DNA from: Obrimoposthia wandeli
Lineage: Eukaryota
Direction of reading: 5' to 3'
Length of the DNA stretch: 64,000 nucleotides
Assembly (NCBI GenBank): GCA_977020255.1
Contig: CDROCS010002076.1
Span: 1 to 64,000, forward strand
Positions 4,585 to 40,100 of this stretch are shown piece after piece. Below the pieces are notes generated by a model. It was not told the origin of the DNA, made no database searches, and saw nothing but the letters and a program-made list of their open reading frames with translations. The position numbers were made by a program, and so were the translations under genes. Each line of letters starts with the position of its first letter. Position 1 is the first letter of the stretch.

Positions 4585-5075
4585 TTATCTACATGTCAAG
4601 TAATAATAAGATAGACTTAAACATATTTTATATGTGCAATGGTCACAATGACTACGATATGGACAGCAAATATTTCGTGCAATTTTTAATATAAGATCAC
4701 GTGAAATATTTAAAGTATTCAACCTCAATTTGGGAAAATATTTTTTAAAAGTCTTATACTTTTTTCCATCCATTTCATCTAAAACATAAAAAATTCCATT
4801 TTCAATATCAAAATTAGATGTTATTGTATCGAAAATACATATTTCACAAAAAGCCTTTTGTCCTTTCCATTTTAATAAAGGAAAGTAATTAATTAGATAT
4901 AAATTAGTAATTTTTATTTTTAGTCTTAACTTTTAAACGGGATATCTATTTGAAATATGAAATGCAAAGGATGAAAAACGTCGCATACATCCATAATACA
5001 TAATTCTTTTATAATATAATCACCATTTTTGTTAATGAAAGCCTCAAAATCTATGATATATTCCTGCTTAATTAT
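4585..5075 (-). pseudogene. Putative DnaQ/DEDD-fold exonuclease-like Polinton accessory protein, frameshifted
   Basis: Minus frame IIDFEAFINKNGDYIIKELCIMD (ExoI-like DxE) and C-terminal CCPYRSHCDHCTYKICL; resembles, from memory, a small invertebrate Polinton ORF family. Confidence 0.45.
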
Positions 5076-5170
5076 CTAAATTTGCAGCAAATCCCGTTGT
5101 TTATAACGAAAAAAATCATTAATCAAAAATTTATTAAAATAACAAAGTACTCAGGATTCAGTCTTTCATG

Positions 5171-5791: not shown

Positions 5792-6004
5792 TTTTTAATT
5801 ATGAAGAGGTTAATAAATTTGAACCTATATATATAAATTTCAGATATTTTTTAATCCAATTAAATTATTTTTATTTATCAAATGAGAGTTTAATAAATCT
5901 ATAACTTATCATTGCATTTAAACCTAATAAACTTAAAGATAGTATTTTAATATTTATAAATTTAAATTTTTTTAAAATAAATATTAAGAAGAAAACACAT
6001 GAAA

Positions 6005-7814
6005 TTAATTTTTATAAATTATATTCTTAAAAATCTTTACAAAGTCATCATTGGGATTATCCTCATCGAAATCCCTCCAACTAAGTATTATTGGAGAAAG
6101 CGGATCTGGCTCCTTCTTTGGCCGTCCCGGTTTCTTTTTCGGCTTCACCTGTTGTTGTACAGCAATTGTCCTTCCCTCAGGTTTTTGAAATAGTTGCCGC
6201 AACGTTTTGGGAGGAGATGCAGCCGATGTTGATGGCCCCGACATAGAAGTCCTCTTCCTCTTCCATGGGGCTTTCTTCTGTTTCTCCTCCTTCTCACGCT
6301 GAAGCTGGCGTGAGACGGCAATCTGTTGTCCTTGCGAACCTGGAAGCACTGCCGGTGTATCCAGTTCCGCCAGGAATTTATCCAATCCAGCTTCATACCA
6401 GGCCCTCTTCAAGTTCTGGCTGGTTGTTGGAGATGCAGTCTCCCAAGCCCTGGCCAAATTTGATGTCTCCTGTAGACATCGTTGACTTGAAGGCGGACTA
6501 ATCTCGATCGGTGAGACAGGGATCCTCTCGTATAGAATTGGCCCGTCGTCTACTGGAGATGGGAGAATCTCCTGCCGTCCAATCACCGTCTCAGAAGAAT
6601 GTCGAATTGAGGTGGAACATTTTCTCGAGCGTTTCGTCTTCTTCACCTCTGCTCGCTTCGTCCGTTTCTTGGGGAAAGGAGTAATTTCTCCCCATTTCTC
6701 CTCAATTATCTGGACGGGTTCCTGCAAAATATTAATAAAATTTAAACATATAAATAATTTACCTCAATGACGGGCAGGTTAGCCTGTTTCACCAACTTGG
6801 CCTTCTTCCGATGGACCGTGTGGGTTTTGACCCGATGGCGTTGCGGTTTCCCTACTGCCGCTTGCTTCCTATCCACCGGTTGAATAGGCGTCGCCTCTTC
6901 GAGAATGTTGTCCATCTATGTGAATTATTAAATTTAATATCTAAATAATTTACCTTAAAATTATCTGGAGACGCTAGGTATCAGAGCTGACTCCTTGGCT
7001 GCTCCTGGCTACGATTGACTCGCCAAGTACTGCAGTTCTATGAGCCTCTCCGCCATGGTCACTGACGGTGCCAAATCCAGTTGAAGTTTCTGAAAATGAA
7101 ATTAAAAAACATTTAAAATAAATGATGTCTAATCTCATTCGTCGCTTTTATTCTCTAACAGGAGTTTCGGCCTTTTGAATGGTTCAGGCGTTGTATTATC
7201 CGCTTTCGGAGTAGCAGAGGGAGTGAGATCATCCCAATCGTCAGTGAACAGGTGCCACTCGTCCTCATCGTCAATTCTGCCACCATCGAATCGTTGGCTC
7301 CTGGGGCTCGGATTCTTGGCTGTATCCATTCGTCGATGAATAGAGTCAAGTCCTCCTCTCCATTCGACGGTACGTCATCGGTGAACAGCTCCTCGTCTGA
7401 GTCTGGTGCGAGGACTTTCTCCGGCTGAGACAGCAGGATCAATTTCCATGGCCAGGATCTCCTTGCTGCTACTGCCAAAGTTGCTGGACGAACAGCTTCT
7501 GTGTTCAGCCTGGGAGTACAGTATTCCCAATTCTCCATCGAATCCTGACTAGTCAGGTCGATATATTGGGATCTCTGTACCCCGCCTCTCACGTCCATTG
7601 GTTCTTCTCTTGGAGTTGAGATGGCCAATGGGGCTTCTTCTTCCAACAGGTCCGCTCTTGCTGCTGATTCTCCTTCGCTCACCACCGATGAGTCTTGACT
7701 ATGTAAGTCAATGTATTGCGACGGTGGTGGCGTTCGCTGCTGCACTGGAGAGAGTTCCCCATAGAGTTGAACCTCCATCTCTTCATCCAAATCGACGTTT
7801 TTGAAAATTGGCAT
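6005..7814 (-). pseudogene. Multi-exon disordered acidic/basic accessory gene (first gene inside the terminus)
   Basis: GC-richer coding blocks separated by AT-rich introns 6916-6953 (38 bp) and 6722-6762 (41 bp), plus an acceptor at 7090; YIDLHSQDS/YIDLTSQDS duplicate; basic KKRTKR, KRKR and KPKKKPGRPKK clusters; frameshifts present. Confidence 0.6.
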
Positions 7815-8193
7815 TCTTGATTCTTGATTAATGAAAAATAATGAAAAGAGGTTTCCTTATATACAAAAAACAAGAGACAAACCCTTTTTTAATCATCCAA
7901 TGAAAGTGGGTTATTCAAATAATTTATTTGAAAAACTATAGGCTTTTATCAATTTTTTAACTACGTTTGAATGCGAGTATGTCATTGGATAAAAAAATAT
8001 TTTATTTGAAAATAGTATTATTTTCTGAAGTTTTTGTTGCTTAAGTTCAACGTCCAATGAGAACGTATTATTCAAATAATTTATAGTAATTTCTTAATTT
8101 TTGTTGATGTTTGAATACATATATATCTTTGGATTTAAAATAGTAATATTTTCTTGACTGTACATGTTTGAAGGGTATAAATTTTTATTTCAG

Positions 8194-8334
8194 AGGTCAT
8201 TTAAGGTCAAGTTAAGGTCATGACCTCATTAGATCAAGGTCATTTAAAGTCATCATGAGGTCCAGGTCATTTAAGGTCATGTTGACTCATTCTATGACTC
8301 ATCTATGACTCATCGATGACTCAACGATAACTCA
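8194..8334. promoter_or_regulatory. Cluster of AGGTCA half-sites (DR4/DR5/IR0) followed by tandem TGACTCA (AP-1 consensus) sites
   Basis: AGGTCA at 8194, 8204, 8215, 8237, 8264, 8274; TGACCT at 8221; TGACTCA at 8283, 8295, 8306, 8317. The motifs are seen directly; function is inferred. Confidence 0.5.
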
Positions 8335-8779
8335 TCCGAATAAAATGAAAATGTTGAAATCATTTCCAATTTATGTAGTTGATGATTTAAAATTTTTTGC
8401 GACGATATATATATGTATCTAGATATAAATTCTTATAAAGAATTTTTTTTTCGCAACCCTGTATATGTATTGCTCGTCAAACCACTGCGGGCCCGGAGGG
8501 CACGCTTTGGTCCACTAAACGGCCTCTCAGGACCTTCCTCACTTTTTTGGGAGCATTATGAGATTTTCAATTTTAAAGGGTGTCATATGGGGTTAATTAG
8601 TTTTTTGAGTGTTAAGGGGGTAGAAAATTTCACTCCACACACATGTGCGAAATTTCACTCTACACACATACACGTTTTTAAAGGACATTGGGGGAGAGGG
8701 TGTGGATTAGACCGGATACATCCACCTACTGTATTTAGAAACTGCTTGGTTGCAGACGTTTGGGATGGCAATTTGTAGA

Positions 8780-9330
8780 GAATTTGTAGAGATTGGTTTC
8801 AATGGCTTAGAAAGACAATGATGTGAAAGACAAAGAATGCTCTGGTGCAGCAGAAAGTTTCAATAAAATTAATTAAAAGCATTGCTTGAAGAAAATTCAT
8901 GTAAAAGACTGAAAGACCCGCCAGACTCATTAAATGTCGATGAATCGACTGTAGGTAAATGTTTAAAATAACTGGGAATGATTCACAAAACAGAAACATT
9001 TGCTACCACATGATTTGAAAGAAAGATACATTAAAAGGGAAGTAATTTTTGTCCCGATTTGTTACTGGTGACAAAAAATGGATTTATAACGATAATTCAG
9101 GGAAAAATTCATTACAAAACGGAATCAGCGCGCAATTAAGGCTATGTTGTGTATTTGAAGGGCTTTTTGAATTATGACCTGCATGAACCGTCTGCAACAA
9201 AAACTTGAGGGTAAACGGCCATAATAGGCCAAAAGACATGACAAATGCTAAACCACACAAAAATGTTAGTACTGCGTCGATAGGATGTGTCACCTCACTC
9301 TACTTCAATCGAAGTACCTCTTCATAATTT
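8780..9330 (+). mobile_element. Mariner transposase remnant
   Basis: Fragments DWFQW..DVKDKECSG, GMIHK..LPHDLKER and FLSRFVTGDKKWIYNDN (mariner VTGDEKW motif); heavily frameshifted. Confidence 0.7.
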
Positions 9331-13100: not shown

Positions 13101-16100
13101 AAGATTATAACTAGTAGAATCACACCAACTTCCTGGAGACAGTGTAGGACAATTATAAATCCCAAACCCAACAAGGACGGCAAGTACGATCAAGCACGAA
13201 ACACGCAACCTATTGCTATATTGAGTACATGCTATGAAGAAACACTGCTACATCCTCCCCTGAAACGTGCTGGGAAGTCCGAGGGATGCGCTGAGCATAC
13301 ATTCATCGAGAGTTGGAAACGCTACAACCTCACTATGAAAGTTCACATAGGCTTTCTAGAAATCTCTGACGCATTGAACTAATCTGTGATGTGTTAGATT
13401 TCAATTTAATACTCCTAAATTCAGTTTGACTAGAAATTAACGTTTTATTACGTGAAAAAGTGTTTGAAGAGAAAATATCGATAATATTCTAAGGAAAAAG
13501 TACAGAAATATAAAATATAGTTTGTTTTAAATTTTATATATTTTGATACATTCTTTCTTTAATTTGAGTAATTTTTTCACGGACATGTGTTGGGAATTAA
13601 AACATTCCAATTTAAATTTAAATTAATTTATCGAAATGCCCACAGTCAAACAGCGATTTTTGTTCAGTGATGTCTAGTTTCTATTTTCTGCTTCGCGATA
13701 GGAAAATTGCCCAAGAAGTAGGAGATAAGACAGAAGAAATTACCATCCTCTATCGATTTTCCTGCCTACCCAATTTTAATTGCACCACATACACACATGT
13801 TATTTTATTGCTTCTATCTGTGTAGTGGTGCCTATTTACGTGTGTGTCTGCAAATTTATGTAATGTCACTTGCGACTGAAATATTAATATAAAATTGTTT
13901 GACATAGAGAGATTTGATATAATTTCTAAAACTAATTTTTTAAATTGCTACAGAAAAGAAGAATTATTGCTGATCATATTTATTACTGTTATCTAAGATC
14001 TAAATAATATAGCCTCCGTTTTATTGGTAATTGTCTTGATTTATTTAATTAATAAGAATTTCCTTGAATTCCCAATGTGATTCCATGGTAATTAGAATCG
14101 AAATCAACATAAAGAAGAAAACTTATATGGTATTTCTTGATAATCGCTACGATTGACAAACTATAAATCTAAAATAGAATTTGAAACTTTCAGGATAGAG
14201 TCAGGAAATTTTTTCAAATAACGCTTAAAACCAAATTTTAACTGTTTAAGTGTATAATTTTGTAATTTACCATTTACCAGTGAAACTCCCAAAATCGATT
14301 ATTGTGATTTAGCACTTTGTTTAACACTCAAATATATTCGTCGAATACTTTGAACAAAATTTACTATTCGTTATTTGAATTTTTGTTGTTTATTTTTCGA
14401 ATAACAAGGATAAATTTTACAACCTAAGGTGTCCAAAAATAATGTAAACAAAAAAGATTAGTCAATTTTAAAATTTCATTTAAGAAAACAGATGAATTTA
14501 TATTGAATTTATATTTTCTTTCATTTCATCCAACAATTTTTTAACACAGTGGATAATAGGATAGTTTTTTTCAAAGCCGTAAAAAATTGAAAATTTACAA
14601 ATCAATTAGAGTTTGAAAAGCTAAGTTTATTATAATTGTGTCTTTCAAAGTGTATTGGATATTATCCATAGAAGCTATTAGATATTACAAATTTATAAAA
14701 ACAAGAGCTTGTTTGAAACGTATGTATATATTATTGTAAGCATTAAAACTATTTCAACATTTAAATTTTTAAAAAATATTCAAGTTTTATAATGAGTAGG
14801 TGGATGTGTCCGGTCTAATCCACAGCACCCCAGTACTTTAAAACCGTGCATGTGTGTGGAGTGAAATTTCGCTCCACACACATCTCATTTTAAAGGGCAA
14901 GAATAATCCACAACCTTTTTTCGCCCCTTTGGCTCGGGATGCGGACTATATTACAGTTTTTCCGCCGACCACGCTCAGGCCTTGGGATGACGACTATATC
15001 CTAGTTTTTTCGCCCCTTTTGAGGCGAACCACAACCGCCCCACCACCCCACATTATGATATATATTTCGGGGAGTTCATACATTCCTTCACCTAGATCTC
15101 TTCAACTTTCCCGTTCCATTGTTAACATACAAAACAGTGATAACCTTTGCTTTCTGTATAGCGTGTTGGCCATCCTCAAAAGGGATGTAATTACTGAGCA
15201 TAGAGAGCGTGTCAGTAAATATATCCCTTTTTAAATGAATTGCAGTATCATGGAATAGATTTTCGTGTTAAATTAACTGCGATATCAAGATTTGAACATC
15301 TTAATAACTTGAGTATTAATGTATTCAAATACAATACTGATATCCCAGTTAATGTACCAGATGAAGAAAATTTTAAAAATCCTTTTTGTAGATGTAATTT
15401 ATAGGAGCAAAAATGAGGGGACTCAGGTCAACTTAATTTTGCTCGAACATAATAAAAAATTCCATTATCCTGCAATTCCCAATTTAGATCGTCTTCTAAA
15501 TTTAGATAATGGAGCCTTACCGGTTAGGATAAGGTGTAAGTGGTGTCATAAATGTTTACATGGATTCCGATCCGAGCTCTCGTACAGCAAACATCTGACA
15601 TTATGTTCACTAAATCCTGATGACAATACGCTATATAGCATGCCTAAGGATAAGGATTTAAAATTCAGGGATTGGGCAAAATGCATACCCGTGGAATTCA
15701 GGGTGTATGCAGATTTTGAGTCAATTCTAGCATTGCACGACCAGTATAAGAGTATTCACCTACCGGCTTCGGCAGGACTACTATTCTTAGGCCCCAATAT
15801 TACACAGTATCATAAATTTTCCGGTCCAAATTGTATTTTAGATTTTATGTTAAAATTAGAAGAATTAGGAACAACAATTGTCAAACCGTGGTATGATCTT
15901 AATGCTCATCAAGCAATGATCATGACAGGCATAGACTGGGTTAATTTTAATTCTTGTAGATTATGTTATTTGTGTGGAACCCAGTCTAAGTTAGTCAGAG
16001 ATCATGATCATGTTACGGGGCGATACTTGGGAGCGTCGTGCAACCTTTTTAACCTTGGCCTCGACTCCCTAAAAAACCACGCATTCCCATCGTGTTTCAT

Positions 16101-19100
16101 AATCTCAAAGGTTTAGTCTATGATGAGCGTAAACTAATAACATATACTAGCAAGTACAACTTCAAGCGTAGTTTTACAATTGCATATGACTTGGTAGCAG
16201 TGTTATTAGGAAAACAGAGTATTTGTCTTGATCGACCTAGTTATATAGGTCAAACGGTTTTAGACATTTCTAAACTCAGAATGTACGACCTTCAATACAT
16301 ATAATTAGAGAAATATCGACAACAATTCAATTGTGAGATCAAAATCGCATCTGGGGTCACTGACTCTTTCTTTTTAGAATGTAAAAATGTTAGTTTAGAT
16401 AATCAATTATTACCGGCAATGTTTAGGGACAACTTACTAGATACCCATAAATATCAGGCTAAACATCCTCTACACTCTATGAGTTTAAAGGATATTATCG
16501 GGAAATTTAAGGATGTAAGCGAGGAACAGGTTTCGTATGATGATTGTATTTTCCTACGCCCTAAATGCTACAGTTTACATGCCTCTAATAATACATGTTC
16601 AATGAGAGCAAAGGGTGTGGGAAGAAACAATCTTACACATGAGGCCTACCGGAAATTTTATGATACTGGGTGTATTGAAAGCGTTGAGCAAACTAGATTT
16701 ATTTCAAGAGCCCATCAACTGTATTCCCATAAATCAACCAAAATCGCTTTGAGTAGTAATGACGATAAGCGCTTTTGGGTAGAAAAGAACGTTAGCCTGG
16801 CTTATGGACACTTCCGAATTTAAACGGTTTTCATTTTTTGATTTTTTTAGTTTATTTTTTTTAAATTTTAGATCCCTATAGCACCTTGACTCTAACTTTT
16901 TGTTATTTCAATACATTTTTTAGGATGGACCTTATTTTTGCTGACAGATCTCATTGTGATGTTGTGTTTAATAAATGTATTAAAAAAATGTCGTCTTATG
17001 TCTTTTATTATTTACCTTATATTTTTAGGGATTTAAAAAAAATAATTCAAAATAAAACATTAAAAATATTTATTATTATAACACACTAATCGTTTTGCAA
17101 CGATAACCATAAAATACATAAATGTTTACAGTTTCTCGTCGCAGAATCCTGATATTGTATCTTGTTGTAAAATACTCTTCTTCGTCCTTTTTGAATGGTT
17201 GAAACAAGTTTGTGTGGATAATACATTGCAAGTGGATCAAATACATGTATTGTCCTCTCTCTAACATAAATAGCTATCCAATGTTCTCCCGGTAAATTCA
17301 AAGTATGAGTATTGATAATGTAACCTCCAGATTGAAAAAATGGGTTCATATCAATTGGATAAACTCCATTGAATTTATCACCCAGGACCATCTCTGCTGA
17401 TTCTTGTACTTGTACTGAACTAAATAAAAATTAATAAATATAAATTTAAAAAATGTCTTACTTCATTCTATAATATGACAGTTCTGTTTTTATTGATTTG
17501 TATTTCGGAATCAAACACTCCGTAAATAAGCACCGTAGTAGGATGTGTTAAAGCTGCATTGAACTTAATTTCTAGTCGTAAATTTCCATCCTTTAGTAGT
17601 TGGCATTGGTTTATATCAAGGTCTGGTGCCAAAACAAATGTGAAGAAGGGGCAGCTGCTTTTAAACTCAGTGAAAGAAATACCATTATTTATATTTTATT
17701 CTAGTTGGCCCAAATTCCGAATAATAGATTGCGTATAAGCCAAAGCATAAGCATTACCTTCGAAATCAGTTTTATATGTTTCGCGATAATCAGTATTTCT
17801 TGAAAGTGTCACTGAACCTACATTAAGATTGTCAACTTAAGTTGCATCTGTCGTCTAATTTTCTAGAATCTTTGCAGTTTTTTGAAAAGAAATTAAAATG
17901 AATTTCGGTAATCTTACATCACCAAAATTTTGATCCTTATTAAAAGCTTGTGTACCCGTACCTAAAGACTAGGATATAAGTTTAGTTTCTCTAATAGGAT
18001 AACAAGCATTGTTTTTTTCCTTTCCTATATTATGTGCCATTAAAACTGATTGCTCAGTTTTAACTCTTCGGACATACAATTTTGCATCCAAAATATCAAG
18101 TCTAGGATTCAGAACGTCTGTGATTAACAAAGAAAAATTCCATTTATTACGTTTCAAACGAAGATGTATATTAACACCGGTAATTAAATATTTCAGGTTG
18201 TTCAAAAGAAATTCAATTTCAAAGACCCACACATTTCCTAAGCTTTAGAACCTGCAATCCATTCTTTTGCGAGTTGCGACCGTTTTATCATATCCAATGG
18301 TTGCCAAATTAGTATTTTGAGTATCAGTACTATAATTCAAAAGACTTTCAATCAAAGCTTTATGAGCATAGGAAGAATTTCCACCTTCAATTTTGACATT
18401 ATTAAGAGTTACAATGGCATCATTAAATAAAGAATTAAAGAGATAATTTACAGGTGTTACATCGGCATTTTCCTCTAAATAAGTACCATCCCGATTTAAT
18501 ACTTTTATTTGAACATAAAGCAAAGTATCATTCAAATCTAAATACTCGCTATTGGAACATTTAATATTAAATTCTAAATCAGTTAAAGTGGTTTCTGAAA
18601 CTGAGTTAACTAGAAATATTTCTTCAAAGGAAGCATTATCTACAACTACTTGTGGAAGCGGTTTATCAAAAATACACAATTCGGTTTTGGCGCAACTCAT
18701 TTTGCAAATATTGTTCCTTCAACATTCTTACGTTTGTTTATATTAATTTTTAGCTTCTTTTTACTTTTAAATCCACTACCTCCTTGGCTTTTATTTGATT
18801 TACGTTTTATAATCAAATTAGCAACTTCAGGTAAAACATTATCAAGTTCATCAAGCGCATGCTTCTTAAAAGTTGGTATTAGTTTGTTGTCCTTTGATGA
18901 AAGGTAATCCTTTCCTAATTTTGATATAAATCGCCCGAGTCTCTTTAAAAGAGGAAAGGCAAATCTACCTAATGTTCTAAGCCAGCCAGATCCGTATTGT
19001 TTACCAACAAAATATGGTAATTCTCCACCTTGTTGGCTTTGACTATAAGCTTCAATTATTGCTGGATTCGCCATTTTGTTTTCTTAAATGTATTATTAAA

Positions 19101-22100
19101 CTTGTCTTGGCCCCGTACGTGAAATCTATTAGTTGTCCGGAATCATCTCTAATATTTACTTCAATATTGTTTATAGAAAAGAGAGAAACTGGAAGATACA
19201 TTGGTTGATCTATACACATACCGACAGTGTCCCCATCTCTAGTTTCATTTTTAGATATCCATATTGTTCTCAAAAGTGGAACTCGCTGTCCTCCTACAAG
19301 CGTTGGTTCTATTAAATTAGTATAAATATATAAAAAGTTTTGCCTTATTTTTAGCTTTCATGGTTTTTATTGTATGGGTTTCAAAGATATTTCTTTTTAA
19401 ACCAAGGTTTTTTGTGAGTTTATCATCAAAGGAAACCTGTTCTATGCTGCTCTTTACCGTAAACGTTAATTTACCATATAATGTTACACATTTATCCAAA
19501 TATTCACTACATTCCTTCTGTATTAATTTACAGAAATTCACTTCACTATCTAATTTATAATCTTTTGAAAACTTTTTCAGTTCCACTACAGTCTTTGGTC
19601 TCGTTTCAAGTAACAACACTTTTGCTACTCTACCAGGAACATTTTTAACCGATTTAGATGAGACTATATCCCGTTTATTACGAGCTACTGTTAGTTCACT
19701 ATCAAAACTGAATAGAAGAGCTTCTTTTTTAGATTCAAAGTTAATTTTAATAACTTGAAGATATTTTAATCGATTTTTAAATCTGACTTTGTTTTTTTTC
19801 ATATATTACTTTCACTTCTTTATCTTTACAATTGTAATAGAATTTTCCTTTACTATCAAACCCAATCACAACTTCAATTGATTTTTCATGATCAACTTCT
19901 TTTGTAAACGAAATATGTGAGTTTTTTCTGATAGTAATTGGAGAATAATAAAAGGAAAATTCTGTTAAAGCCGCTTCCCATTCACTTTGGAGATTTATAG
20001 GATTTTCCCAATCGATAATATAGCTACTAGCGTAATTATCTGGTTGAGTCTTCGAACATCCGTTACTAGGTAAAACCATATACATAGACTTCATATTATA
20101 TTCGATGCTGATATCCAAGTTGGGTCTGAATAACCATGCCATTTAACATAGTAATGTTATGTTTACCTGTACCCTTAGATTTTAATATTTTTTGAATACG
20201 GAAAATGCTAGGTTTATTTGATATTACTTGTAGTTCTTGCTCGTAAAATTTACCGTAAACGATTGTATTGTCAGCATCTTTAATAGTATACATTATTGGA
20301 TTACTCTTTTGATCAATTTTACTTATACAAAATATTTCATCGCTCCAATTCTGATCAAAGTTTTTAATAAATGGAGTAGAGCTAATTTTCGAAATTCGAA
20401 CATATTCGTTTTTCTTATATTTAGCTTTTTTAATATTTTTTTTATTCCTGTTCATCCAAATGTCCATAGAGTTTTTATTAGTAACATCAACAGGTCTCAT
20501 TCCCTTGAGACCTCTATGTTCAAAGTGATTATATGCATGTAATATTTCAGGTAAAACTTGGATCCATTTTTTATTTCCTTCTTTTGTGAAATACCTTTTT
20601 ATTCGATTTCTTAAAGTGCGATTAAATCTTTCTACTACTGCTGCTTTGTACTGTGAAAACACAGAGTAGTGATTTATATTATTTTGTTTAAATAATGATT
20701 GAACTTGTTTATTATAAAATTATTTTCCTAAATCAGTTTGCATATTTTGTGGAATGTCCTCTTTTAATATTTCTTTAATGGCTTCAAGCATAGATATTGA
20801 AGACTTTGCTTTAACTGGAATTGCACGAGCAAACCTGCTAAATACATCAATACATGTTAAAATATATCGATATCCCTTATTAATGGAAGAATATAGGATA
20901 ATCTCCATCAAATCCATTTGCCATAAATTATTAGGACCGCTGGTTTTGTAAACTCTAGTTGGAAACCTTCTTCTCATCGGCTTGTTCAGACTGAAGGCTA
21001 GCTGGTCGCTCAGCCATTTCTGCGTTTTCTTGTAATTTTGTTTTGATCTTTATGTTATTTTTGCTAATTTTGAAACTCCTGTGTAGCTAATTGAATCTTT
21101 TGGATTGAACCATATCTTCTCCATTACAACAATTTGAATAGAAAGAAAATTTTAATTTAGGTAAAGAAGGGTTAGCACCCATATCTTTAGCTGTTTTTGA
21201 ATTAATTGTTTATGAACGTGGCGCAGCTATAATACTACTGATAATTGAAGCAACAACTGGAATAACAGCCCCTATGAAACCACCATTCTGTTTAAGAATT
21301 ATATTTCGTTTCCTTTTTTTACTTTTTACATTAGCAATATCTAGAAGAGTTATTCTATATTTCTTTAATATATTTTTCCGATTTCTAACTTTTACTCGAC
21401 CCAAAAATATATTATACAAAACTTCCAATAAATCATCTACAACAAAGGATAGAAATGCTTTAAGAATAATCATTCTCTTATGAGAAGAGGCTTTTACTAA
21501 AGCTTTAAAATAGGGTATGCTTATTTGTATTTTCTTCATTTTAATAAAAAAGGTTCAATTTGAATATTGTTTATATTTGAAGCCATTTAAGTTTTTTTTA
21601 ATTTCTAACTACAGATTTGATTAATTTTTTCACTTCTGTTTTCTTAATGATTCTTTTTTTTGATTTCTTAGGCTTTGCTTTACGTTTTACTATTAAATTC
21701 GTAAAATGCATTGTAAATTTATTTTTTATAATTGTTCTCTATTTGTTTATAAACAGTTACTCCCTTAGAATTAAATATGTCGGTTAAAACACGTAAATCA
21801 TCTGGGCAAGCTTGTGTAAAGTCAATAAATATATACCCATGTGCTTGTTTAGCAGCATCGTGGAATGAATCAACCAGAAAGTTCTTATTTTGGGGAAATG
21901 CCTGTTTGGCCACAAATTCTACAACTGTTTGATCTCTAGGATTTTTAAATAAAACTAGGTAATGTACATTAAGATTTCTTGTTCTATGGTGACCTCCTTG
22001 GTGAAAAAGATTTTGAGTGATAAATATAACTGTTACTTCACGATGTCTTGCAATCTTCGTAAATAAATTATTAAAATCCGATTCCTTGTTAGCTTCCTGA

Positions 22101-25100
22101 TACAAATTATAAATTATTATTACATCTTCTTTTTCAATCTTTCACACCAATTTGCATCAAATCCTTCAATAAATTGTATTCCCTTCAACTTGCAAACTTC
22201 TATTTTGGTTAATCCGCTTTTCTCTCCTCCACCATGATCCAAATAAATATTTTTGAAACTATCTTTGAAAATAGATTCATTTTGCAACAATTTACATACG
22301 AAATGTGTCTTTCCACTTCCACTGGGACCAACTATTTGAAATACAGCATTATTATTTAGCTCCATTGCATATACTCTTTCATTTTTAATATTGTTTATAT
22401 TATCATAGAAGTTTCCTTATTGAAATGTACAATGTTAGAGCTTTATTGAAACTTTGTTTGAAGGCTATGTTAGTTTGAACCCAGTTAATGAATATTTAGC
22501 TATAATTTTATTTATTTGTGTACGATTTCTAAATTCTCGAATAACGTGTGATCTAACCAATATTTTAATGTTATCTCTTGTTATATCATTATTTTTTAAT
22601 TCTGATAAAATTTCTTTACCCCTAATTTTTTCAGAAAATATTTCGTCGGCAAGATTATCCACTTCATTGTCTCTATTTATAGTATTATTCATTTGAAACA
22701 ATAAGTTTAAACGGGTATGTTTATAGAAAAGATAACAAGATGTAATAAGATATATTTTCTAAAATCAAATAAACAATGTCTGGATAATCAAAATTTTTCA
22801 ATCCCAATATCATAACTTTACCACTGGAAAATATATTTACACATAGCGGTTTAAATTTCAAATAACTGAGAGCAGGAAAAATTTCTGGTTCAAACATGCA
22901 TTCTTCTTTCATTTACTCTGCAGTTTTAATTGTTTATTTGTTTAATTGTTTCCCAAGATTAGCCGAAATCGTGATTGATTGTATTGCAGTGATTTGAATT
23001 CCAAATGGTAAATTGAACCCAAGCATTGGTATTTTGCATCCCATAACACGATAATTTCCTAAAAGAATTCAATATGAAAATAAAATAATAAAACTAACCT
23101 GTGGGAAAAATAACAACTGTAAAATTGTCAAACGTTTCCACATATTGTCTCGGCTTCCATTCATTGAATGGTAAGTACGAAACATCATCTTCTGTTCTAC
23201 CTTTATAATTTATATTTACGAGTTTCATTAGACTATAATTGTATTCTGTAAAATCTTCTTTATATATGTCTGAACCTGCTTTTTTATTGCACGTTTCTTG
23301 TAATTATCTTGCAAACCTATTATAATTGGATGATATAGTTTGGAGTTTGGAATCATTTTAAGAGAAATGAAGATGAAGCAATGTTGCAAAATTACCCACA
23401 TAGGATTACGTACAAAGTATTCCCCACAACACCCTTGTTGAATCATTTCAAATTAAACATTACTGACTTTTCGTGGAATTCGCTCGAATGATGAATATGT
23501 CAACCAATGAGGCAATTAAAATTAGAACTTTATACTACTAACACAAATATTCTACAAAAATATACACTTGTTTTAATATAAACCCTCAAAATCTCCTATA
23601 CTCTCTTAGCAAATAATCGGTATTCGTGATTATTCGAATATAAAAAATTATGAATAGTGTAAAACCCAATTTAGCGCATAGAAGGAAAAAAATTGAGTAA
23701 ATATGATCATAATTAAACTAATATTTTTAATAGACTTTTAATTCTTTTCACACGGGAAACATTAAATATGCTTATTCTGATTGAAGGTATTAAAAGCTCA
23801 GATGAAGTTTCGAGTATTTGTCATAGTTTTATTTTGATTGTAAAATGAAACATTGTTTGAAGGCTATGTTAGTTTGAACCCAGTATCAAATCATAAAATA
23901 CACAGTGAACATCGGATAAACGGATACTTCCCCGACTGGGTAAAAGTGCCAATTGGGACTTTCACCAGTGCTAATATCATTATCAAAGTTAACATGTTCA
24001 GCAACAGAAACAGTTGGATCAATTTCATAAATAATTCTAGTCAGCTCATCATCTTTAATCCATTGATTTACCAGGAAATTTCCGATAATTCAAAATAAAT
24101 ACAATATTAAATTCCCTCGATAAACCTAAATAATCATTTTATGAAATGTCCTGTTTACTGAGGCAATGTTACATAGCACATGCTTGTGGAAATGTCGGGA
24201 GAGACGAGGTAACATGTTAATGAAAGAAGCATCTGTTAATGCGAGATTTCCCCGTAGGTGTGAGGCACTCCAATTTTCCTGATGTTGCAGCCGAGTTGAG
24301 GGAAAGAAAGACAAAGCTTTAAAGTAATTTAAAATAAAGTTTTACATTGTGTTTTTTAAGTAATTTACAAAATTTTGGGGATTTCATATTTTCTAAAATG
24401 GGTTTAAATTTAATGTATGTTGCATTATTTTATGCTATTCATTAAATACTATACTTAAGGATATTTCCTCTGCCTCAAAGTAAAGTAAGTGCTCTGTTGT
24501 ATTTTCCCACATTATCTGTTTTTCTTTAAAGTTTCTGTCCAGTGAAAATTGTCAACTGCTGTAAAAGTTGATCTTAATCTTCAAACTGTAATTATAGCAA
24601 CAGTAATATGAAATAATATGAACATATATATGAGAAAATTGGTTTTAATACTACTCCTCCTGCGCTACTTAATAATAAAACAAAATTTTCACGTTCATTA
24701 TATTACATCATACAGGTGTCCTATTTACTAATGTTTTTTTAAAAATTATTCAATGTTAACTTAAGATAGAATAATAAAACTGGACCATACGTTTACATAT
24801 ATATTTTACTAATATATATTAAAAATAAATTCCAAAAATGGCTGCCTTTTGCTTTCACCATAGCCTCTCCGTGTAAACTATATCACAAGATTCTGCCGCA
24901 CCACCTCCCCCATCAAACTTGGACCATGTTAAGAAGGGCTTCTTTTTAGAGCAGCTACATTTGAGTATGATTTAGAGGAAACATTGCTCTCTAAGATAGA
25001 CCAAATAGAAAAGTCCATCATTGGGTTAATGTCTGACTTGAGGGAGGCCATACGTTCTTGTCCCAGAATTCAGAAAAATGATCTTACAATCTGATTTGGT

Positions 25101-28100: not shown

Positions 28101-31100
28101 CACATGTGTTGTAATTTTTGGTGCAAAATATATATGCAAATATAGCGCTGTTCAACAGTCAACTAAAAATAAACGTGTTTTATAATGTTGCGTTAATGGA
28201 ACTTGGGAGGCAAATGGGTTAATTTATTTTACTAGATTAGATATCAGAATTCAAAATTATATTATTTTCTTACCATAAATGTTTTTCTCTTTAATCCGTC
28301 TATAATGATATAAATTAAGCAAACAAAATTGTAATTTATTTTGTTTTAAAATGTGTTTAATAAAATTTGAGATTAGTTTAAAACGAAATTAAATAATGCA
28401 GGTTAATAATAAATAAGTCACATTATTTTTTAGCCAGTTTATAATTTTAATACAAATTTATGTAACATCAGTTTTATTATTAAATTTAAAATGAAAGTTT
28501 TAAAAACTTGAATAAGTCATTTGAAACCATTTCATAATTCTGAATTACTAATTACTAAAACTTTAAATTAAATTTAAAATAAGTTTACTTTAAAAAAATT
28601 AATGATTTTATTTTACATGTTTTCGGCTTTAATCGTGATATTTGAAGTATGAAGTATTTTCTTACCATAAATGTTTTTCTCTTTAATCCGTCTATAATGA
28701 TATAAATTAAGCAAACAAAATTGTAATTTATTTTGTTTTAAAATGTGTTTAATAAAATTTGAGATTAGTTTAAAACGAAATTAAATAATGCAGGTTAATA
28801 ATAAATAAGTCACATTATTTTTTAGCCAGTTTATAATTTTAATACAAATTTATGTAACATCAGTTTTATTATTAAATTTAAAATGAAAGTTTTAAAAACT
28901 TGAATAAGTCATTTGAAACCATTTCATAATTCTGAATTACTAATTACTAAAACTTTAAATTAAATTTAAAATAAGTTTACTTTAAAAAAATTAATGATTT
29001 TATTTTACATGTTTTCGGCTTTAATCGTGATATTTGAGCTATGAAATACATGTTTTCTTACTATAAATGTTTTTCTTTTAATCCGTCTATAATGATATAA
29101 ATTAAGCAAATAAAATTGTAATTTATTTTGTTTTAAAAATGTGTTTAATAAAATTTGAGATTAGTTTAAAAACGAAATTAAATAATGCAGGTTAATAATA
29201 AAATAAGTCGCTATTATTTTTTAGCCAGTTTATAATTTTAATACAAATTTATGTAACATCAGTTTTATTATTAAATTTAAAATGAAAGTTTTAAAAACTT
29301 GAATAAGTCATTTGAAACCATTTCATAATTCTGAATTACTAATTACTAAAACTTTAAATTAAATTTAAAATAAGTTTACTTTAAAAAAATTAATGATTTT
29401 ATTTTACATGTTTTCGGCTTTAATCGTGATATTTGAAGTATGAAGTATTTTCTTACCATAAATGTTTTTCTCTTTAATCCGTCTATAATGATATAAATTA
29501 AGCAAACAAAATTGTAATTTATTTTGTTTTAAAATGTGTTTAATAAAATTTGAGATTAGTTTAAAACGAAATTAAATAATGCAGGTTAATAATAAATAAG
29601 TCACATTATTTTTTAGCCAGTTTATAATTTTAATACAAATTTATGTAACATCAGTTTTATTATTAAATTTAAAATGAAAGTTTTAAAAACTTGAATAAGT
29701 CATTTGAAACCATTTCATAATTCTGAATTACTAATTACTAAAACTTTAAATTAAATTTAAAATAAGTTTACTTTAAAAAAATTAATGATTTTATTTTACA
29801 TGTTTTCGGCTTTAATCGTGATATTTGAAGTATGAAATAAGGTATTATAAGGACTGAAATGTATTTGAATGTAAACAGGTCAAACGTATTTAAAATAAAT
29901 TCATCAAAACGTTTTAAGTGGTATAATATGACTAAAATTAGCGCACATTTAGGTGGCGAGGTTGGTAGATGTTTCAACTTTTCTTTATAAGATAAATTGA
30001 AATAAACTTATGTCCATCACACCAAAATATTATTCTGCTTTTGGTGATATGATGAGAAAAAATGGACCTTGTTCGAAAGAAGAGTAAACCATTGACATGC
30101 GTGAGAGCAGTTGTTTCGGAAATCGGGTTAGGGTAAACAACAGTTCACAAAGTACAGCCAACCTCTATAATAAACACATGAAGAATTTTTTGTTCATAAT
30201 AAAAAATAAATTAAACAATTATATAATATTTGATAAATTTTAAGATTAAAATAAAATAAAACAAACTATTTTCTAATCTTACAGGATATATAGGAACATT
30301 ATCGAATATTAAAATAATGTTTATATTCTCTTTTTCTAATTGTTCATTAACTTTATTGAACTTTTTACAGAAAATATTCAAGTTTATTTATAATTTCTTT
30401 TACTTAAGCTGTCATTAGTCGTTCTCGTTTTAGACCATTTCTGTTAATACGCAATAATAAAGTCATACGTTATTGGGATAATTTGTAATTTCTATTATCA
30501 GAGTGTTTTATGATAGGCATTCTTTTAGGAGAACATTTAAAAATTTCCCAATTTTGTATTAGGTATGGAAATTTTCTTGGGCATATTATTCTAATTTAGA
30601 CTTGTTAACATCTTTGAAGCACTCAAATTTTGAATCATTTATTAGACTTTCTTCTCCAGCAATTGTTTTTCTACTCATTTTGTGTCTTACCTAAATCCCA
30701 ACAACCAACCATTTAGTCGGGTTTTATTTACCTATGCTTGGCTGTATATGCAGAATCTTTATACCGCTGTGCGAATGTCAGCTATCCTATCATCATTACT
30801 GTGCTGTTACCCATACAGATTGGACCTGAAGCTGTACGATATGGTGAAGACCGATGATGATGTGGGACCGGTGATCAGCGCTGTCGAGCAATGCAAATGT
30901 GACAATGTTACCACTGGCAATCACTGTGAGGTGAATAAGCATTTCTCACTTCTTCACTCAGTACCTCACTCTTTCACTCCTTCACTCCCTCCTTCCGTTA
31001 CTCCCTCACTCACTATTTCACTACCTTTCTCCATCCCTCTCTCACGCACCCACTAACGCACTCACTCATTCACTACTTCCCTTATTCACTCACTCTTTAT

Positions 31101-34100
31101 CTCCCTTTCTCCCTCACACACTCACTCCTTCACTCACTCCCTCTCTTACTCCCTCACTCTTTCGTTCCTTCACTATCTCCTTCACTCACTCTCTCCCTTA
31201 CTCTTTCTCTCACTCACTCTTTCATTCCCTTTCTCCCTTCTTCTCTCACGCACCCACTAACGCACTCACTAACTCTCTCGTTAACTCACTCACACATTTT
31301 CCTCCATCCAGAAACCTATCCCGGGTTTCTTCCGTGAAGTCATTGACCAAGACGCCGATAAAAAATCTTTGTGGAATTGGACGCTCATCGTCAACATCAA
31401 CACCAGAAAAAGACCTGACGTACGACCTTGCCAGTGTAACGGTCACTCCACCACGTGCAACCCTGAAAATGGATACTGTCTGAACTGTGCTGAGCACACA
31501 ACTGGCTCCGCCTGCCATCTCTGTGCACCCGGTTTCTATGGTGACCCTCGCAACAGCGGCATCTGTCTCCCATGCCAATGCCCTCTCACCACAAACAAGT
31601 ACGTCACATGAATATTTTCAATTCACAATCAATTCCGTGAACAATTTTTAAAAACTAATCCTACTAAATTTCGCTGCTTCATGATATATAGATACACCGA
31701 AAATCACGACATAGAACGTATACCAATGTATTACTTTTCTAAACTCCGAAATTGCCATTTGAGTTTTAAATTAAATTAAAAAAATACGACTAATAAGGGA
31801 ACCTTCTTAATTGATAATCACAGTTTGATTTGAAATTTATAACAAATACATATTAAAATTTTCGAAAACTCTTGTTATAATTTTAATCGGTGAGCGCAGG
31901 TCTCGAGTTTTCACTGTAAAACATATTAGTCTAAATTAAAACCACATGGTTAAATAGATAATTTAGATATACATATACAAATATCTTTATAAATAGGCAC
32001 ATTTAAACTGTAAAATGCTCAGAAACCATTCTGTCCGACTAGCTCATTCCAATAAAACTATTTGCACTTGATATTTCACAAAACATACGGAATATTCTAT
32101 TCCAACGGCGGTTCTAACCTTAACTTAACCAAAAATTAAATATATTTTAAGATTTTTGATCATATAGATAGGAGACAATATATTTTTAATTGAAATATGT
32201 TTGATACTACTGGTATATTTTTAGAATTTATTTGCTTAAAATTTCTTTTGACGGATTTGAACTTTAAGAAGGTGGCTTCATCCATCAAAATACAAAGCAA
32301 ACTATACGATGATTTTAAAAATTAAATCTTTTTTTTAATAAATTTTAAAATCAAATTAAGATATCGACTTTTATCCCTGTTACAATTTAAAGTAGTTGGA
32401 GATACCTTTATCACTGCTAAAGTTGTAGAATTAAATACAGTAATTTTCTAATATTATATTTTAATTTTTATCTTATGTTCAAATTGTTGGATTTATTAGT
32501 TCAATTACTGATGTGGGAATCAGTCTAGACTATTTGATCGATGATCGAACATATTATCAATTAACAGTGAAGCATTTTGTTGATAAGGACGTAAGCTTTT
32601 GATTATGTGATTCATTTTTTTATCTGAGTTCTAGATAAAATTTATGCAAGGTTTCAGTCTCAATTACATTTATATTGTATGGTCTTAATATTAATACTGA
32701 CAAGTTCTGTTGCCATTCAATCGTTCCAAAGATCCAACTGGTATCGGGTTCCAGTAAAAACTCATAGTTTTTACTTAGTTCGTCGACCGGATTTTGTGTT
32801 GATTGAATATATCGTATTTTTACCTTTTGTAATGGTGCTTGTCACTGGGTAGCTATTAGTATCCACCAGTTTCTCCTTGCTGAATCTCTTTTATTTTTTT
32901 CCATGAAAACTGAAGGTCGATTGTCACACAATATGGTATCGAATTAACATTGGCCACGACTTGGATGGACTTTGATGAATGAAATCAGGTCGCCACCTCA
33001 TTCCTCAAGGTTGCTTGAGCGATCTTTACGGATTAGAATGATGTTTGTAAATTTGGGTGATTTGTTAGACTTGCAGAGCTTGTTATCCGCGCGATGTCAA
33101 TCTGGCATATGCAAAATCTTTCCTCAACCTCTAACAAAGCTCGAAGTGACTGAAAGTTATTGTTATTTTTAGGTTAATTGATTAATAAAAGAAATGCTTG
33201 GTTTATGGTTGTTGTTGAATAATTAAGATGTTGATGAAGCGAAAGAAATAGAACAAATACGATAATTTGGATTTTTGTCACGCATTTTATATTCAATTTG
33301 TCAGTTTTGTCAATTTTACGAGCTTGGTACCTATCTTATCATCGATGAACATGATTTGTAATGATTCTATGCTTCTTTAAATTTCACATATCATCTTTCT
33401 GAGTAACCCAGTAATGTGCTTTGCCCTTAAAGCAGGCCCAAAAATAAAACATTTTTATCTAAATGTTTTAAAAACTCGTAGTAAAGTACGTTAGTGAGGG
33501 ATATGCGTCTTCTAAGACAAAGCCTTATCAGATGACGTCATCGATGGGTCATGGTATTTCTTCTCTGAGAACAAAAGGTAATTGCTAGGAAAATGACTCA
33601 TTGAGGGTAGGGTTTTGTCCTAGAAGACGCATATCGCCCTACTTACGTTGTACCAACTTAGTTTTTAGCATCTCCTAAAGAAATACCAATGAGTTGCATC
33701 AATGTTATTCCACTGAGGAGAGGGCACGTAGACAGACGGCCTAAATTACCTTCAGATTCGAGGAATTCAGTGGATTCCTATTTACAAGTTCTATAAATCT
33801 AAGAACTTATGAGCTAGAGGCTTCCATAAGTAGTGAACTAAATACTGCTGCAATACAACGTATTAAGCAAAATATATTAAATACCAAAAATTTAACAATC
33901 CTTTTCATGAAACTTTACTTAGATACAGGAAGCTGTCTTCGCTTGAACTTTTGACTGTTATGAATAAAAATTTGAAAAAAAATATTTAGGACCTTTAATC
34001 AAATTTCGAAGATCAATTATTTAAATAAACTATTCCATTTGATCTGTTCCAATGAATGAAGCAAGTGTTGATAAAATATTAAAGCACTATTTCAACATTA

Positions 34101-37100: not shown

Positions 37101-40100
37101 TTTCAATGACCTTCAAAAAAATCGATGTTCTTTTCAGAAACCTATGCCATTCTTTAATAATTGCGCGTTTGAGGCTCAACGTTTTCATAATTAGAATTTT
37201 GTATGTGAAATCTATTTGATAATATTCTCTAAATATTTACTATAATATTGAGGTGTGGATCCTTAGACAGCCAAGATATAAAATCGATATTATTTTTCTT
37301 CCCTCAATATATATATCTTTCCTGATGTAATTGTTAATCTGAATCTTAATGATTTAAAGTATAGAGAATCACTATTTTAAATTATTGAAGACTCATAATT
37401 GAAAGAAAAATATTTTCCTAAGGATTCTTTTCATAACTAAATTGGCCAGCAAAAAATTTCAAACTATAAATAAATTAAAATATCTTAGATTAAAATTCTT
37501 TATTGCATAGCAAAAAGGGATCATTTAATGTTTCGGCAGATTTGCAATAGTCAAATATATCTTGAAGGATTTTGATAACCCCTTCGGTACATCGGCTATT
37601 TCTTTCTAGTCCAAGAATTTCCAATCTTTTTTGTCCATGGTTCAGCTAAAAAAATTACAAAGATCAGTAAATTTAATCTTCGTATATCTGGCGTCAATAT
37701 AAATGCCAACAGTGTACAAATCGCTCTTGAATGCACATTGCATTACTAAAATGGAAAGCATTGTTATTTAGAAAAAAGAAATCACTTATGAAGGATGAAA
37801 ACCAAAAATTAGAGAAACAAAAAGAATTTAAAATATGTAAATATATGTTATCTAAATCTAATGATCACGCATTATTCAAAGACGCATTGTTTAATATGAT
37901 CTCTGACACAATAAACTGATGGTGCACAGTTAATTGTAGCTTGAACTAGATGGCACAGGTACTCTTCATATCAGTTCTTAAATAGAAAAGTCATCGACAT
38001 TTCTTTACAGATATTTATATTTCTGTAATTTCTTTTATGTAAATTCATTGAAAATCTAAAATATTCTGTCTTTCTGTTTCTTTTTGAATGTTTTCACAGC
38101 TTTATGTTTATCAATCGCTCCAATAAATCAACAAACCGTCGGCAAACCGTACAGCTGCTAGAATAATATTTAGGTCTGTATACGACAGTTAGAATGATGA
38201 AGTGAACTTTATATGAACTAGCTTTAGCAACTTCAACATTTATGTGTGTTCAAACAGATTTTGGAAAATTTGAATAAGTCCCGAAGATTTCGATTGGGTG
38301 TTTAGGTTAGCTTTCCATTCTCCAATCAGCAAAGCCTCACCGACAACTCTTTCACGATAACTTTAAAACCCTCTTTTTAAACGGTAAATTATTAGATTGT
38401 TCCCGTTTGCAACAACTCATATGGTGTACACACAAGGCCGAAGTTGCTATATCAAGCCTGAAAAAGTTTACAATTTAATCTAAACTGCATTTCCCAATGA
38501 CGGCTTTTGACTGAAATTAAATGTGTGGTTTACGCAGTTTTGTATTTCTAATGTTAAATGACATACCGCAAAACATCTCCTGCACAGTCACGCCTCCTCG
38601 TGCGGGACGAATGCTGGGACCGGACTGCCCAGTGGCTGCATCTGTCTGCCAGGATACTATGGGATGTACTGCGACAAGTGTCAAGACGGCTACTACGGTA
38701 ACCCCCTCATTGCGGTCTGTCATCCATGCGGTTGCTCCGCCGAGGGTTCAAGGTCAACTCTGTGTCACAAGGGCACCGGGAAATGCGAATGTGGCCCTGG
38801 CATCGAGGGAGACAAGTGCGATCAATGTGCTGTCAACCACGTCGTCCAGAACCGCACCTGCCAGAGTAGGTTTATTGGTGTGAAGGGAAACAGGTAACAG
38901 CAGCGCATCATTGAAATAATCTTTTAGGGTTAGTCTTTCATTCTGATTACGACGAAAAATAATTTTAATGCACCATCACGTCTAAAACATTTAAATTATG
39001 ATATATATCCTAACCAAAAGGCATTTTTCATTATTTTATTATTATTTAATTAAATTATCACTGTATTTTTAAAATATTATATATCAGAGGAAGAGATTAT
39101 TCTGGAATATGATATTACACATAGATAATATGAAATGCCGATGTCTAGAAAACATGTATCAATAAATCAGGATCAGTTAACTGGCTCAGTGAGATATTTG
39201 AATCTTTCTAAATGGTAATCTGAAATACTTGGCTTACGTTTGTAACAATGGAATATATTAGAAATTTCATGTTTTCGTAATAGTTTGCACCAAATAATTA
39301 ATTGTTATAACTAAATATACTATTTCATGTATATGTCAACTTGTTATTTTGTGTATAAAAATGTGTTGTCTGACCATGTGATGGATTTTTAGAACATTTC
39401 AGAATAAGCTAACAAATTTATACTAAAAAAATACTACAGTCAGATATCACCAATATGAAATTTTATATTATGAACAATTTTGGATTGTTGGATCCATAGA
39501 CCCACTTCCCCCGTTAATATAGGAAACGTAAAGTAAAAACATTCTAATAAAAAGCAAATTTAAAATTTACTCTTTCATATGAACACTTTAATTTTAAAAA
39601 TATTTTAGTAAATTTTAATAAAGAATGAAATGTTATTTTATTTGCTACAATTATGACTGGTCAAAAATTAGATTCGTTTGTTATTGGTAGATGTAGAAAT
39701 TTTGAGGTTTTAAAAGTATTAACCTAGAAAAACTGGGACTCGCATGTTCTAGTAATATACACTTTTTGATGACCTTATATTTTTTCCAGAAATGGCCTTA
39801 TACAATTAATGAAAGCATGAAAAAAATGAAATAATTTTTGTGTGTTTCTCTTAGATAATGCTACAATTTCCTCAGTTTATTTCCCTCCAAATACTACTTC
39901 TAAACTTCAACTCTTGAATCAGGATATTATCGAAGCTTTCAAAATGTACGGAGTTTTCGAAGATATTTTAACTGGGAAAGAAACAAGAAACCTCAAAATA
40001 CAGATTTATTTTCAAATATTTAAATAAACTTATGTATATTAGAGCATTTCATTTTTAATTTTTTCTTGATTACGCAAAATGTTTACGCAATTATGAACAT

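Follow-up and report, generated by a model that had tools for sequence, protein, structure and literature searches.

The TATA-binding protein (TBP)-like gene described here lies in a broken Polinton/Maverick element of Obrimoposthia wandeli, within the first 64,000 nucleotides of contig CDROCS010002076.1 (assembly GCA_977020255.1, forward strand), a stretch referred to throughout as the window. Viral proteins with a TBP fold are known from the Nucleocytoviricota, most of which encode an RNA polymerase of their own, and from the herpesviruses (viral TBPs or vTBPs: ORF24 from Kaposi's sarcoma-associated herpesvirus, BcRF1 of Epstein-Barr virus and UL87 of human cytomegalovirus), where late promoters carry the word TATT. 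ORF24, according to the available part of PMC12529657, is a multidomain protein of 752 amino acids which binds RNA polymerase II (Pol II) directly, lacks the glutamates that contact TFIIB and is predicted to clash with TFIIB. In TBP itself two glutamates of the C-terminal lobe bind TFIIB and also touch Brf1/2, and a basic cluster of the N-terminal lobe, mostly in helix H2, binds TFIIA, TAF1, BTAF1/Mot1 and Brf; most viral TBPs have lost the glutamates (the first Glu position standing at about 40%) and come with a TFIIB of their own, as the Nucleocytoviricota mostly do (PMC7221094, available part).

The Polinton protein resembles the herpesvirus proteins in combining a viral TBP fold with a private TATA variant before structural genes, and its polar DNA face is, like that of ORF24, changed at V122, T124, V161 and L205 (Table 1 in the available part of PMC12529657). 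It differs from ORF24 in being a single domain of about 150 amino acids with no extra domains, in its kept glutamates and in the promoter word, and its fold similarity to BcRF1 is weak (BFVD, E 3e-3). BFVD matches to Nucleocytoviricota proteins reach E 1e-8, and the loss of the eukaryotic N-lobe signature is common to both (PMC7221094, available part); however, no TFIIB was found in the Polinton elements. By analogy the protein, with its predicted promoter role, would work like the herpesvirus vTBPs whilst standing outside that type.

The window holds the Polinton/Maverick gene set of PolB, rve integrase, ATPase, capsids and protease, the integrase being recognized by Pfam and the other genes labelled by homology among copies and relatives. 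Together with a protein-X-like gene, this is the content of the Beta-PolB Polintons, Mavericks and adintoviruses (Starrett et al., 2021; PMC8502044, available part), and the PolB of locus L070 has no PF03175 match, which fits the Beta definition given there (L and P numbers denote loci and protein relatives in this analysis, and G000 the source genome of the window). The original prediction knew of no TBP as a standard Polinton gene, though it allowed for earlier reports, and this calls for a slight amendment. In the available part of Starrett et al. (2021), a figure legend in the section on non-animal datasets labels a gene “TBP” on a map of MELD viruses, as does the preprint; it is a label only, with no family, fold, promoter word or mechanism described there. 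In a search of the literature on Polintons, Mavericks and adintoviruses which covered most papers as listings, no description of a TBP-like family or of the word was found; subscription papers, Repbase and the figures of Starrett et al. (2021) may add to this. The available part of a 2026 framework preprint contains neither “TBP” nor “TATA”. It is argued here that the reduced TBP of this Polinton lineage probably acts as the element's late-promoter factor, being itself an early gene, serving a private YATAAACR promoter and recruiting host TFIIB and Pol II.

A reduced TBP carried by Polintons

The reading of the gene given in the original prediction (start codon, 40-nt GT..AG segment, exon 2 running to a TAA and two in-frame TAA stops) was correct in its coordinates (Table 1), and the TBP fold which it proposed was recovered both by Pfam and by structure prediction. 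With X placed at the stops, exon 2 matches the TBP family PF00352 (E 1.8e-10; 41 bits vs. a cut-off of 22.9); exon 1 by itself gave no PF00352 match, and all 84 members of the family alignment match (E<=0.001). The folded proteins were natural database relatives rather than the window copy. An AlphaFold2 model of P0008, an intronless relative 53% identical over exon 2, has a predicted local distance difference test score of 96.7 and aligns with residues 65-240 of yeast TBP as a two-lobed saddle with a continuous sheet (VIA Z 13.3; root-mean-square deviation 2.8 over 153 residues), cellular and archaeal TBPs (yeast TBP, PDB 7o4i/1ytb) being among its closest known counterparts; every match listed at E<=0.001 in a Foldseek search of the PDB was a TBP chain or a TBP fusion. 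The second lobe of the model is full, whilst the first consists of five strands and no helix, so that H1 and the basic helix H2 of canonical eukaryotic TBP are absent. A longer Polinton subfamily (about 165-185 amino acids; L125) keeps H1 and a 12-residue H2 (Z 17.9); the short forms have about 145-157 residues and 20-25% identity to cellular TBP. The Polinton protein is a divergent member of PF00352, not a canonical TBP.

Residues were counted by sequence alignment over the 32 rows of the short clade, using the yeast DNA-contact list in Table 1 of PMC12529657 (available part). At the two TFIIB-contact positions, E186 is Glu in 30 rows and Asp in two, and E188 is invariant (32/32). The intercalating phenylalanines are kept at the positions of F190 and F207 (32/32 each) and F116 (27/28), as are the positions of N69 and P191, but that of F99 is Pro in 28/28, with a register uncertain by one residue and no conserved aromatic close by. 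This agrees with the earlier description of three kept phenylalanines out of four, a short first repeat and no N-terminal extension. Six DNA-facing changes are nearly invariant (V71>N, V122>R, T124>M, N159>S, V161>T and L205>N), five of them to polar residues, and in the region of H2 only 8.9 of 20 columns are filled, with 0.9 Lys/Arg vs. 4.3. The L140 protein, which falls outside the family clade, keeps F99, V71, N159 and V161; together with the two-helix and helix-free forms it suggests a series of reduction, the order of which is left unfixed by the tree.

No TFIIB-like open reading frame (ORF) was found among 1313 element ORFs with a four-sequence profile, or by Pfam in 71 ORFs, though with so weak a profile this negative is not proof. 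Judged from these residues and ORFs, the Polinton protein appears to reverse the usual viral pattern, having kept the glutamates with no TFIIB-like ORF found beside them.

The gene is supported as element-borne, as originally proposed, and copies with open exons do exist. When the genome itself was searched at the DNA level, 2578 first-look candidates came up; 40 of them were scored and 30 retrieved (about 95% identity or higher), and in 21 of the 30 the two exons are open and keep phase. With the Pfam TBP profile, G000 yielded 19,768 first-look candidates (150 scored), which are not copy numbers, host TBP/TRF loci taking the top ten rows. In all of 20 further G000 loci, picked for differing frame lengths, the gene is surrounded by Polinton genes, the loci belonging to several families at about 50% identity. 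A profile search recovered 58 protein clusters at E<=1e-30, and a metagenome scan confirmed 135 stretches, 80 of which were kept; homologues of ATPase, integrase, capsid, protease or PolB accompany the gene at 40 of these 80 loci, and on 19 of the 22 contigs of 4 kb or more. Relatives are thus present in many environmental samples. At least three gene orders occur, in which the gene precedes the ATPase, follows the protease block or follows the minor capsid. Scans of IMG/VR with TBP patterns returned one TBP of giant-virus type (L031) and otherwise nothing, those with ATPase and capsid alignments no matches, a phage collection no matches, and contigs of prokaryote genomes two short loci only.

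Several observations stand beside these searches. The ESM Atlas gave TBP clusters only, of low recognition value, which are not counted as evidence. The expansion of Polintons in G000 is very large (31,070 ATPase beside the 19,768 TBP first-look candidates in 1.35 Gb, again candidates and not copy numbers), its several families, at about 50% protein identity, often being nested within one another. Accessory genes beside the TBP-like gene in related elements (L123, L127, L128, L137; L098, L110) include KilA-N with DUF3627, C2H2 zinc-finger, leucine-rich-repeat and PLA2-like genes.

In a tree of 71 rows, 59 family rows are split at 100/100 from 11 cellular and nucleocytoplasmic large DNA virus (NCLDV) rows plus L140, and the short forms make up a clade of 32 rows (100/95). 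The host TBP groups with eukaryotic TBP at 100/90, and L031, the sole NCLDV-type TBP, is placed among the cellular TBPs. This tree is midpoint-rooted with bootstrap values not fully settled; five cellular rows were labelled by reading the sequence, 24 rows have no known context, and the locus rows L064 and L110 have no marker gene. As was predicted, the gene therefore does not group with host TBP/TRF. The family is under purifying selection: among the best 60 pairs, the ratio of nonsynonymous to synonymous divergence (dN/dS) is mostly 0.1-0.3 between families and about 1 for several near-identical pairs, and the corresponding ratio for polymorphisms among close copies (pN/pS) is 0.25 for shared variants vs. 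1.01 for singletons, thus pointing to selection during spread and decay after insertion. The window copy itself is dead, although its family was under selection. Both of its stops recur in L002, a near duplicate, and its promoter is cut 112 nt upstream of the ATG, no match to other copies continuing beyond 23340; in other copies the promoter region runs on to a divergent gene and the element end. In the copies on contigs C465 and C1223 of G000 one CCAAT-rich two-way promoter is common to the TBP-like gene and this divergent gene, which the window copy lacks.

Of the host's own loci, two canonical TBP paralogues lie head to head at C238:870559-875236, and intronless divergent TBP/TRF-like genes occur on C60 and C1092, with another on C968. 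The TFIIB family has one TFIIB on C3153 and further loci on C1245, C1124, C1202 and C5487, which we take to be Brf-like; one adjoins an Alpha Polinton PolB.

The 40-nt GT-AG segment is probably a spliced intron. In L058 (4741-4781), L052, L057, a second gene of L054 (8741-8811, expanded by a TTA repeat) and the metagenome locus L091, the same Gly codon is split by a GT..AG segment, and no gap occurs at the junction in single-ORF metagenome relatives (P0006-P0008, P0011) or in an intronless family of G000. Of 29 close copies (the near duplicate L002 being omitted), 28 retain the GT and all 29 the AG, and length changes affect eight introns of 40 nt vs. six changes in 462 nt of exon. Substitutions are not in excess in the segment (0.011 per site vs. 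0.015-0.017 in exons), which is neutral or counts against an intron, and four runs over L004 gave even coverage of genes and spacers alike, with none of the 15 joints listed, out of 580, falling at the intron, which is uninformative on splicing. A frameshift in place of an intron was ruled out, as the junction is conserved across families. Vertebrate Mavericks have been described as intron-free (PMC8097293), whereas the Polinton TBP-like gene has a short intron in several families and none in others.

The putative promoter word and its distribution

The word was sought within 130 nt upstream of dereplicated genes of the metagenome loci, 11 ORFs with wrong or partial starts having been removed by hand. 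YATAAAC precedes the ATPase in 20/22 cases (shuffles: mean 1.2, maximum 4), the major capsid in 9/9, the integrase in 11/14, the minor capsid in 10/13, PX in 8/12, PZ-like in 6/6, the protease in 3/5 and PolB in 1/5, with shuffle means of 0.1-1.2 for these genes and antisense matches of 0 in all. Before the TBP-like gene it was found in 0/49, and the canonical TATAWAWR was found there in 19/49 (shuffles: mean 5.9, maximum 11). The first lobe of TBP reads the 3' half of the TATA box, which is where YATAAACR, with its C at position 7, differs.

Among the 142 YATAAACR sites of 24 longer loci (without dereplication), 76 are placed 25-60 nt ahead of an ATG, most often at 30-39 nt (46 sites), and many sites lie 80-700 nt beyond any stop yet 33-39 nt before an ATG. 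For ATPase, capsid and integrase genes the distance is mostly 30-50 nt. In the range of 25-60 nt one-base variants reach 5-15% and AATAAA 20/421, so that position 1 must be Y and position 7 must be C. Near gene ends Ile-Asn is coded ATAAAC in 25/38 cases vs. 36/242 elsewhere (p 2e-10), an excess attributed to the word biasing codons of the upstream gene within which it lies. In the window, between 16.9 and 23.3 kb, there are eight sense-strand sites vs. one antisense, and two ORFs of the other element arm have a canonical TATA and no word.

As a control, a complete Alpha-PolB Polinton with 406-nt terminal inverted repeats and a PF03175 PolB was found in G000 (C2184, about 63,278-78,328; L152-L154). 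The TBP-like family profile gave no match on this element and the word precedes 0/13 of its ORFs, whilst a neighbouring TBP-bearing element of equal guanine-cytosine content has nine sense sites in 6.6 kb; in twelve further Alpha-PolB copies the word precedes 0/34 gene starts. The C2184 element also carries a PLA2-integrase ORF, a Pox_A32 ATPase and a double-jelly-roll capsid, with T-rich and then A-rich tracts before its genes.

A putative late-promoter factor and its alternatives

The proposal that the TBP-like protein is a late-promoter factor is based on observations of its fold, linkage, selection, helix loss, kept glutamates and changed DNA face, and of the position, strand and specificity of the word. 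With a TBP-like gene and an unusual TATA-like word in front of the capsid, packaging and integrase genes, the element likely supplies the switch that turns these genes on. Host TFIID would transcribe the TBP-like gene early from a host-type CCAAT and TATA promoter; the mini-TBP would then bind YATAAACR through its polar DNA face, in preference to TATAAAAG, and engage host TFIIB via the kept glutamates, with Pol II starting about 30 nt downstream of the word at the packaging, integrase and capsid genes. Without H2, the protein would escape Mot1/BTAF1, TAF1 and TFIIA. It is word binding, TFIIB recruitment, timing and this escape that we infer from sequence. We also lean, if only narrowly, towards a fuller version, a two-tier early/late programme run, in a large lineage of animal Polintons, by one TBP of about 150 amino acids which shed all its host regulatory surfaces, re-specified its DNA face for YATAAACR and kept only its TFIIB hook, by stepwise reduction from the L140 type via the two-helix form, in the service of an autonomous viral cycle.

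However, this proposal should be considered with caution, as several points weigh against it. One intercalating phenylalanine and half of the convex surface are lost, so that DNA bending may be impaired, and a strict canonical TATA is missing at 30/49 TBP-like genes. Thirty word sites lie within 0-9 nt of a stop codon, a clustering ascribed to the abutment of genes, one site in L085 is followed by no ORF of 55 amino acids or more, and a comparison of YK[QH] codons (22/24 vs. 12/14) was uninformative. Host TBP itself may read TATAAAC; among the matches listed, PDB entry 1qn3 shows wild-type TBP on DNA with a C(-25) variant of the TATA box. The control represents one Alpha-PolB lineage which differs in many other genes, with no TBP-less Beta-PolB element among the controls, and gene and word may therefore merely share ancestry. 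Finally, L140 is a Polinton with a TBP-like gene (234-761) and the same gene order whose genes are not preceded by the word, no common upstream word of another kind being found there, and hence the gene is not always paired with the word. As a single case, L140 fits a changed DNA face going with the word, and it is possibly an early stage or a separate capture.

There is also the chance, which we regard as rather unlikely, that the protein is a decoy for host shut-off which sequesters TFIIB or blocks host TATA boxes, the word being read by host TBP or another factor. Keeping the TFIIB glutamates whilst losing the helix for TFIIA, TAF1 and Mot1 would indeed give a stable dead-end binder, and the lost phenylalanine is in line with this; but this leaves unexplained why the changed DNA face is invariant, why position 7 is strictly C and why the word is missing in front of the TBP-like gene and from the TBP-less lineage, and a soak-up of TFIIB would hurt the element's own genes too. 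The original prediction had offered an element-encoded transcription switch in two forms: the dominant-negative mimic does not explain the word, whereas the late-promoter factor draws independent support from a word placed before structural and integration genes but not before the TBP-like gene, nor in the TBP-less lineage. On an improbable reading the word would signal polyadenylation or termination where genes end, and the protein would have another job on DNA, at the origin, in packaging or in integration. TATAAA and CATAAA are variant poly(A) signals resembling AATAAA, and the sites near stops and the orphan site of L085 are what such a signal would leave; against this stand the sharp peak in distance to the next ATG, the many sites far past stops that keep this distance, and the need for Y and C at positions 1 and 7, AATAAA being unlinked to starts.

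The protein could also read the word but partner with an element-encoded factor or a Brf-type TFIIB paralogue, in the manner of ORF24 or of the TBP/TFIIB pairs of giant viruses. Several small ORFs near the gene are unannotated, and the host has several further TFIIB-family loci, presumably Brf-like; the same glutamates, moreover, contact Brf1/2 (PMC7221094, available part). This too seems to us quite improbable, given the negative search for a TFIIB-like ORF, the loss of the N-lobe surface used by Brf, and two glutamates that are near invariant, unlike those of ORF24 and most viral TBPs. The idea that the element took up a host TBP/TRF as a recent pseudogene or retrocopy has next to no probability and is refuted by the tree and the selection results: the stops of the window copy and the neutral singleton variants would suit it, but the TBP genes of the host are found at other loci and fall with eukaryotic TBP, and the family extends over many clusters, in Polintons of many samples, under low dN/dS.

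Other features of the window and implications

The features of the window are collected in Table 1. Its capsid gene labels and the PZ-like name are ones we assume from general knowledge, as in part is the ATPase label.

Table 1. Positions of the TBP-like gene, word sites and other element features in the window
Feature	Position	Strand	Remarks
TBP-like gene	22721..23228	minus	ATG at 23228; exon 2 ends in TAA
Exon 1, TBP-like gene	23099..23228	minus	130 nt; first lobe, from N69-equivalent strand to F116-equivalent Phe
GT-AG intron (putative splicing)	23059..23098	minus	40 nt, inside Gly codon
Exon 2, TBP-like gene	22721..23058	minus	End of first lobe and whole second lobe with E-P-E-x-F stirrup; Pfam PF00352
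Two in-frame TAA stops	22936-22934 and 22915-22913 (22913..22936)	minus	First within locally rearranged patch common only to L002
Canonical TATA box of TBP-like gene, TATATAAAG	23258..23266	minus	In 26/30 copies
CCAAT box of TBP-like gene	23325..23329	minus	In 29/30 copies
Word TATAAACA	22718..22725	minus	Across TBP stop; 33 nt before small ORF (ATG 22692)
Word TATAAACA	22392..22399	minus	34 nt before packaging ATPase ATG (22365)
Word TATAAACA	21744..21751	minus	Within last ATPase codons
Word TATAAACA	21568..21575	minus	36 nt before protein-X-like ORF (ATG 21539)
Word CATAAACA	21207..21214	minus	Before integrase region
Word TATAAACA	19168..19175	minus	101 nt before PZ-like ORF
Word TATAAACA	18735..18742	minus	42 nt before major capsid ATG (18700), inside upstream ORF
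Word variant TATAAACC	17608..17615	minus	Near capsid gene end, upstream of protease
Small unannotated ORF between TBP-like gene and ATPase	22465-22692	minus	75 aa in this copy vs. about 90 aa in others; own TATAAACA
Packaging ATPase, broken	21719..22365	minus	Walker A motif; homology; fragment without Pfam match
rve integrase, broken into several frames	20096..21049	minus	PF00665, E 4.7e-8
Minor capsid, PZ-like, major capsid and cysteine protease genes, broken	17086..20142	minus	Gene order; Peptidase_C5 weak, E 0.09
Convergent PolB fragments	15055..16823	plus	Inverted duplicate of part of PolB at 148-3324 (minus)
Cluster of 7 AGGTCA/TGACCT and 4 TGACTCA sites	8194..8323	no strand	Near other element end

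An enhancer cassette was part of the original prediction, and a cluster of such sites does exist, although it is situated at the other element arm. Its 130 nt hold seven of the 27 AGGTCA/TGACCT and four of the eight TGACTCA sites of the whole window; we take it to be a nuclear-receptor and AP-1 enhancer, and it could gate the early genes. A scan of the element for p53 half-sites found none in 1-8800 and five scattered over 14700-24300. A segment of about 110 nt (8625-8734 in the window) is found again, inverted, at both ends of other copies, the window copy being rearranged and cut. Within the small ORF next to the TBP-like gene, about 35 nt of flanking DNA are repeated (22449-22484 and 23848-23885) in the window copy and L002 only, which suggests templated patching after insertion. 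Elsewhere in the window are a 5.6-kb palindromic foldback-like element (46447-52050) with long inverted arms, 26-nt and approximately 134-nt tandem repeats and a middle of about 17% guanine-cytosine, a fourfold tandem array of an AT-rich, approximately 395-nt unit (28283-29904), and, on the plus strand, exons of a host gene labelled laminin-like from ORF reading (30600-31600, 38500-38900, 42300-42700 and 54100-54450), with EGF-like Cys repeats and a coiled coil.

The abundance of the TBP-like family in G000, vs. a handful of host loci, can confuse the annotation of TBP genes. The question addressed here is how Polintons control their capsid genes and whether they pass through a virus-like cycle without a helper, and a dedicated factor with a private promoter word offers a concrete mechanism for that control. 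Its forms amount, too, to a series of natural TBP deletions which would separate TFIIB recruitment from control by TFIIA, TAF1 and Mot1, and the protein is possibly one half of a small orthogonal TBP-promoter pair. If the proposal is true, such a pair would be an orthogonal promoter-factor system for host Pol II, and the elements would provide direct genomic evidence of an autonomous early/late cycle.

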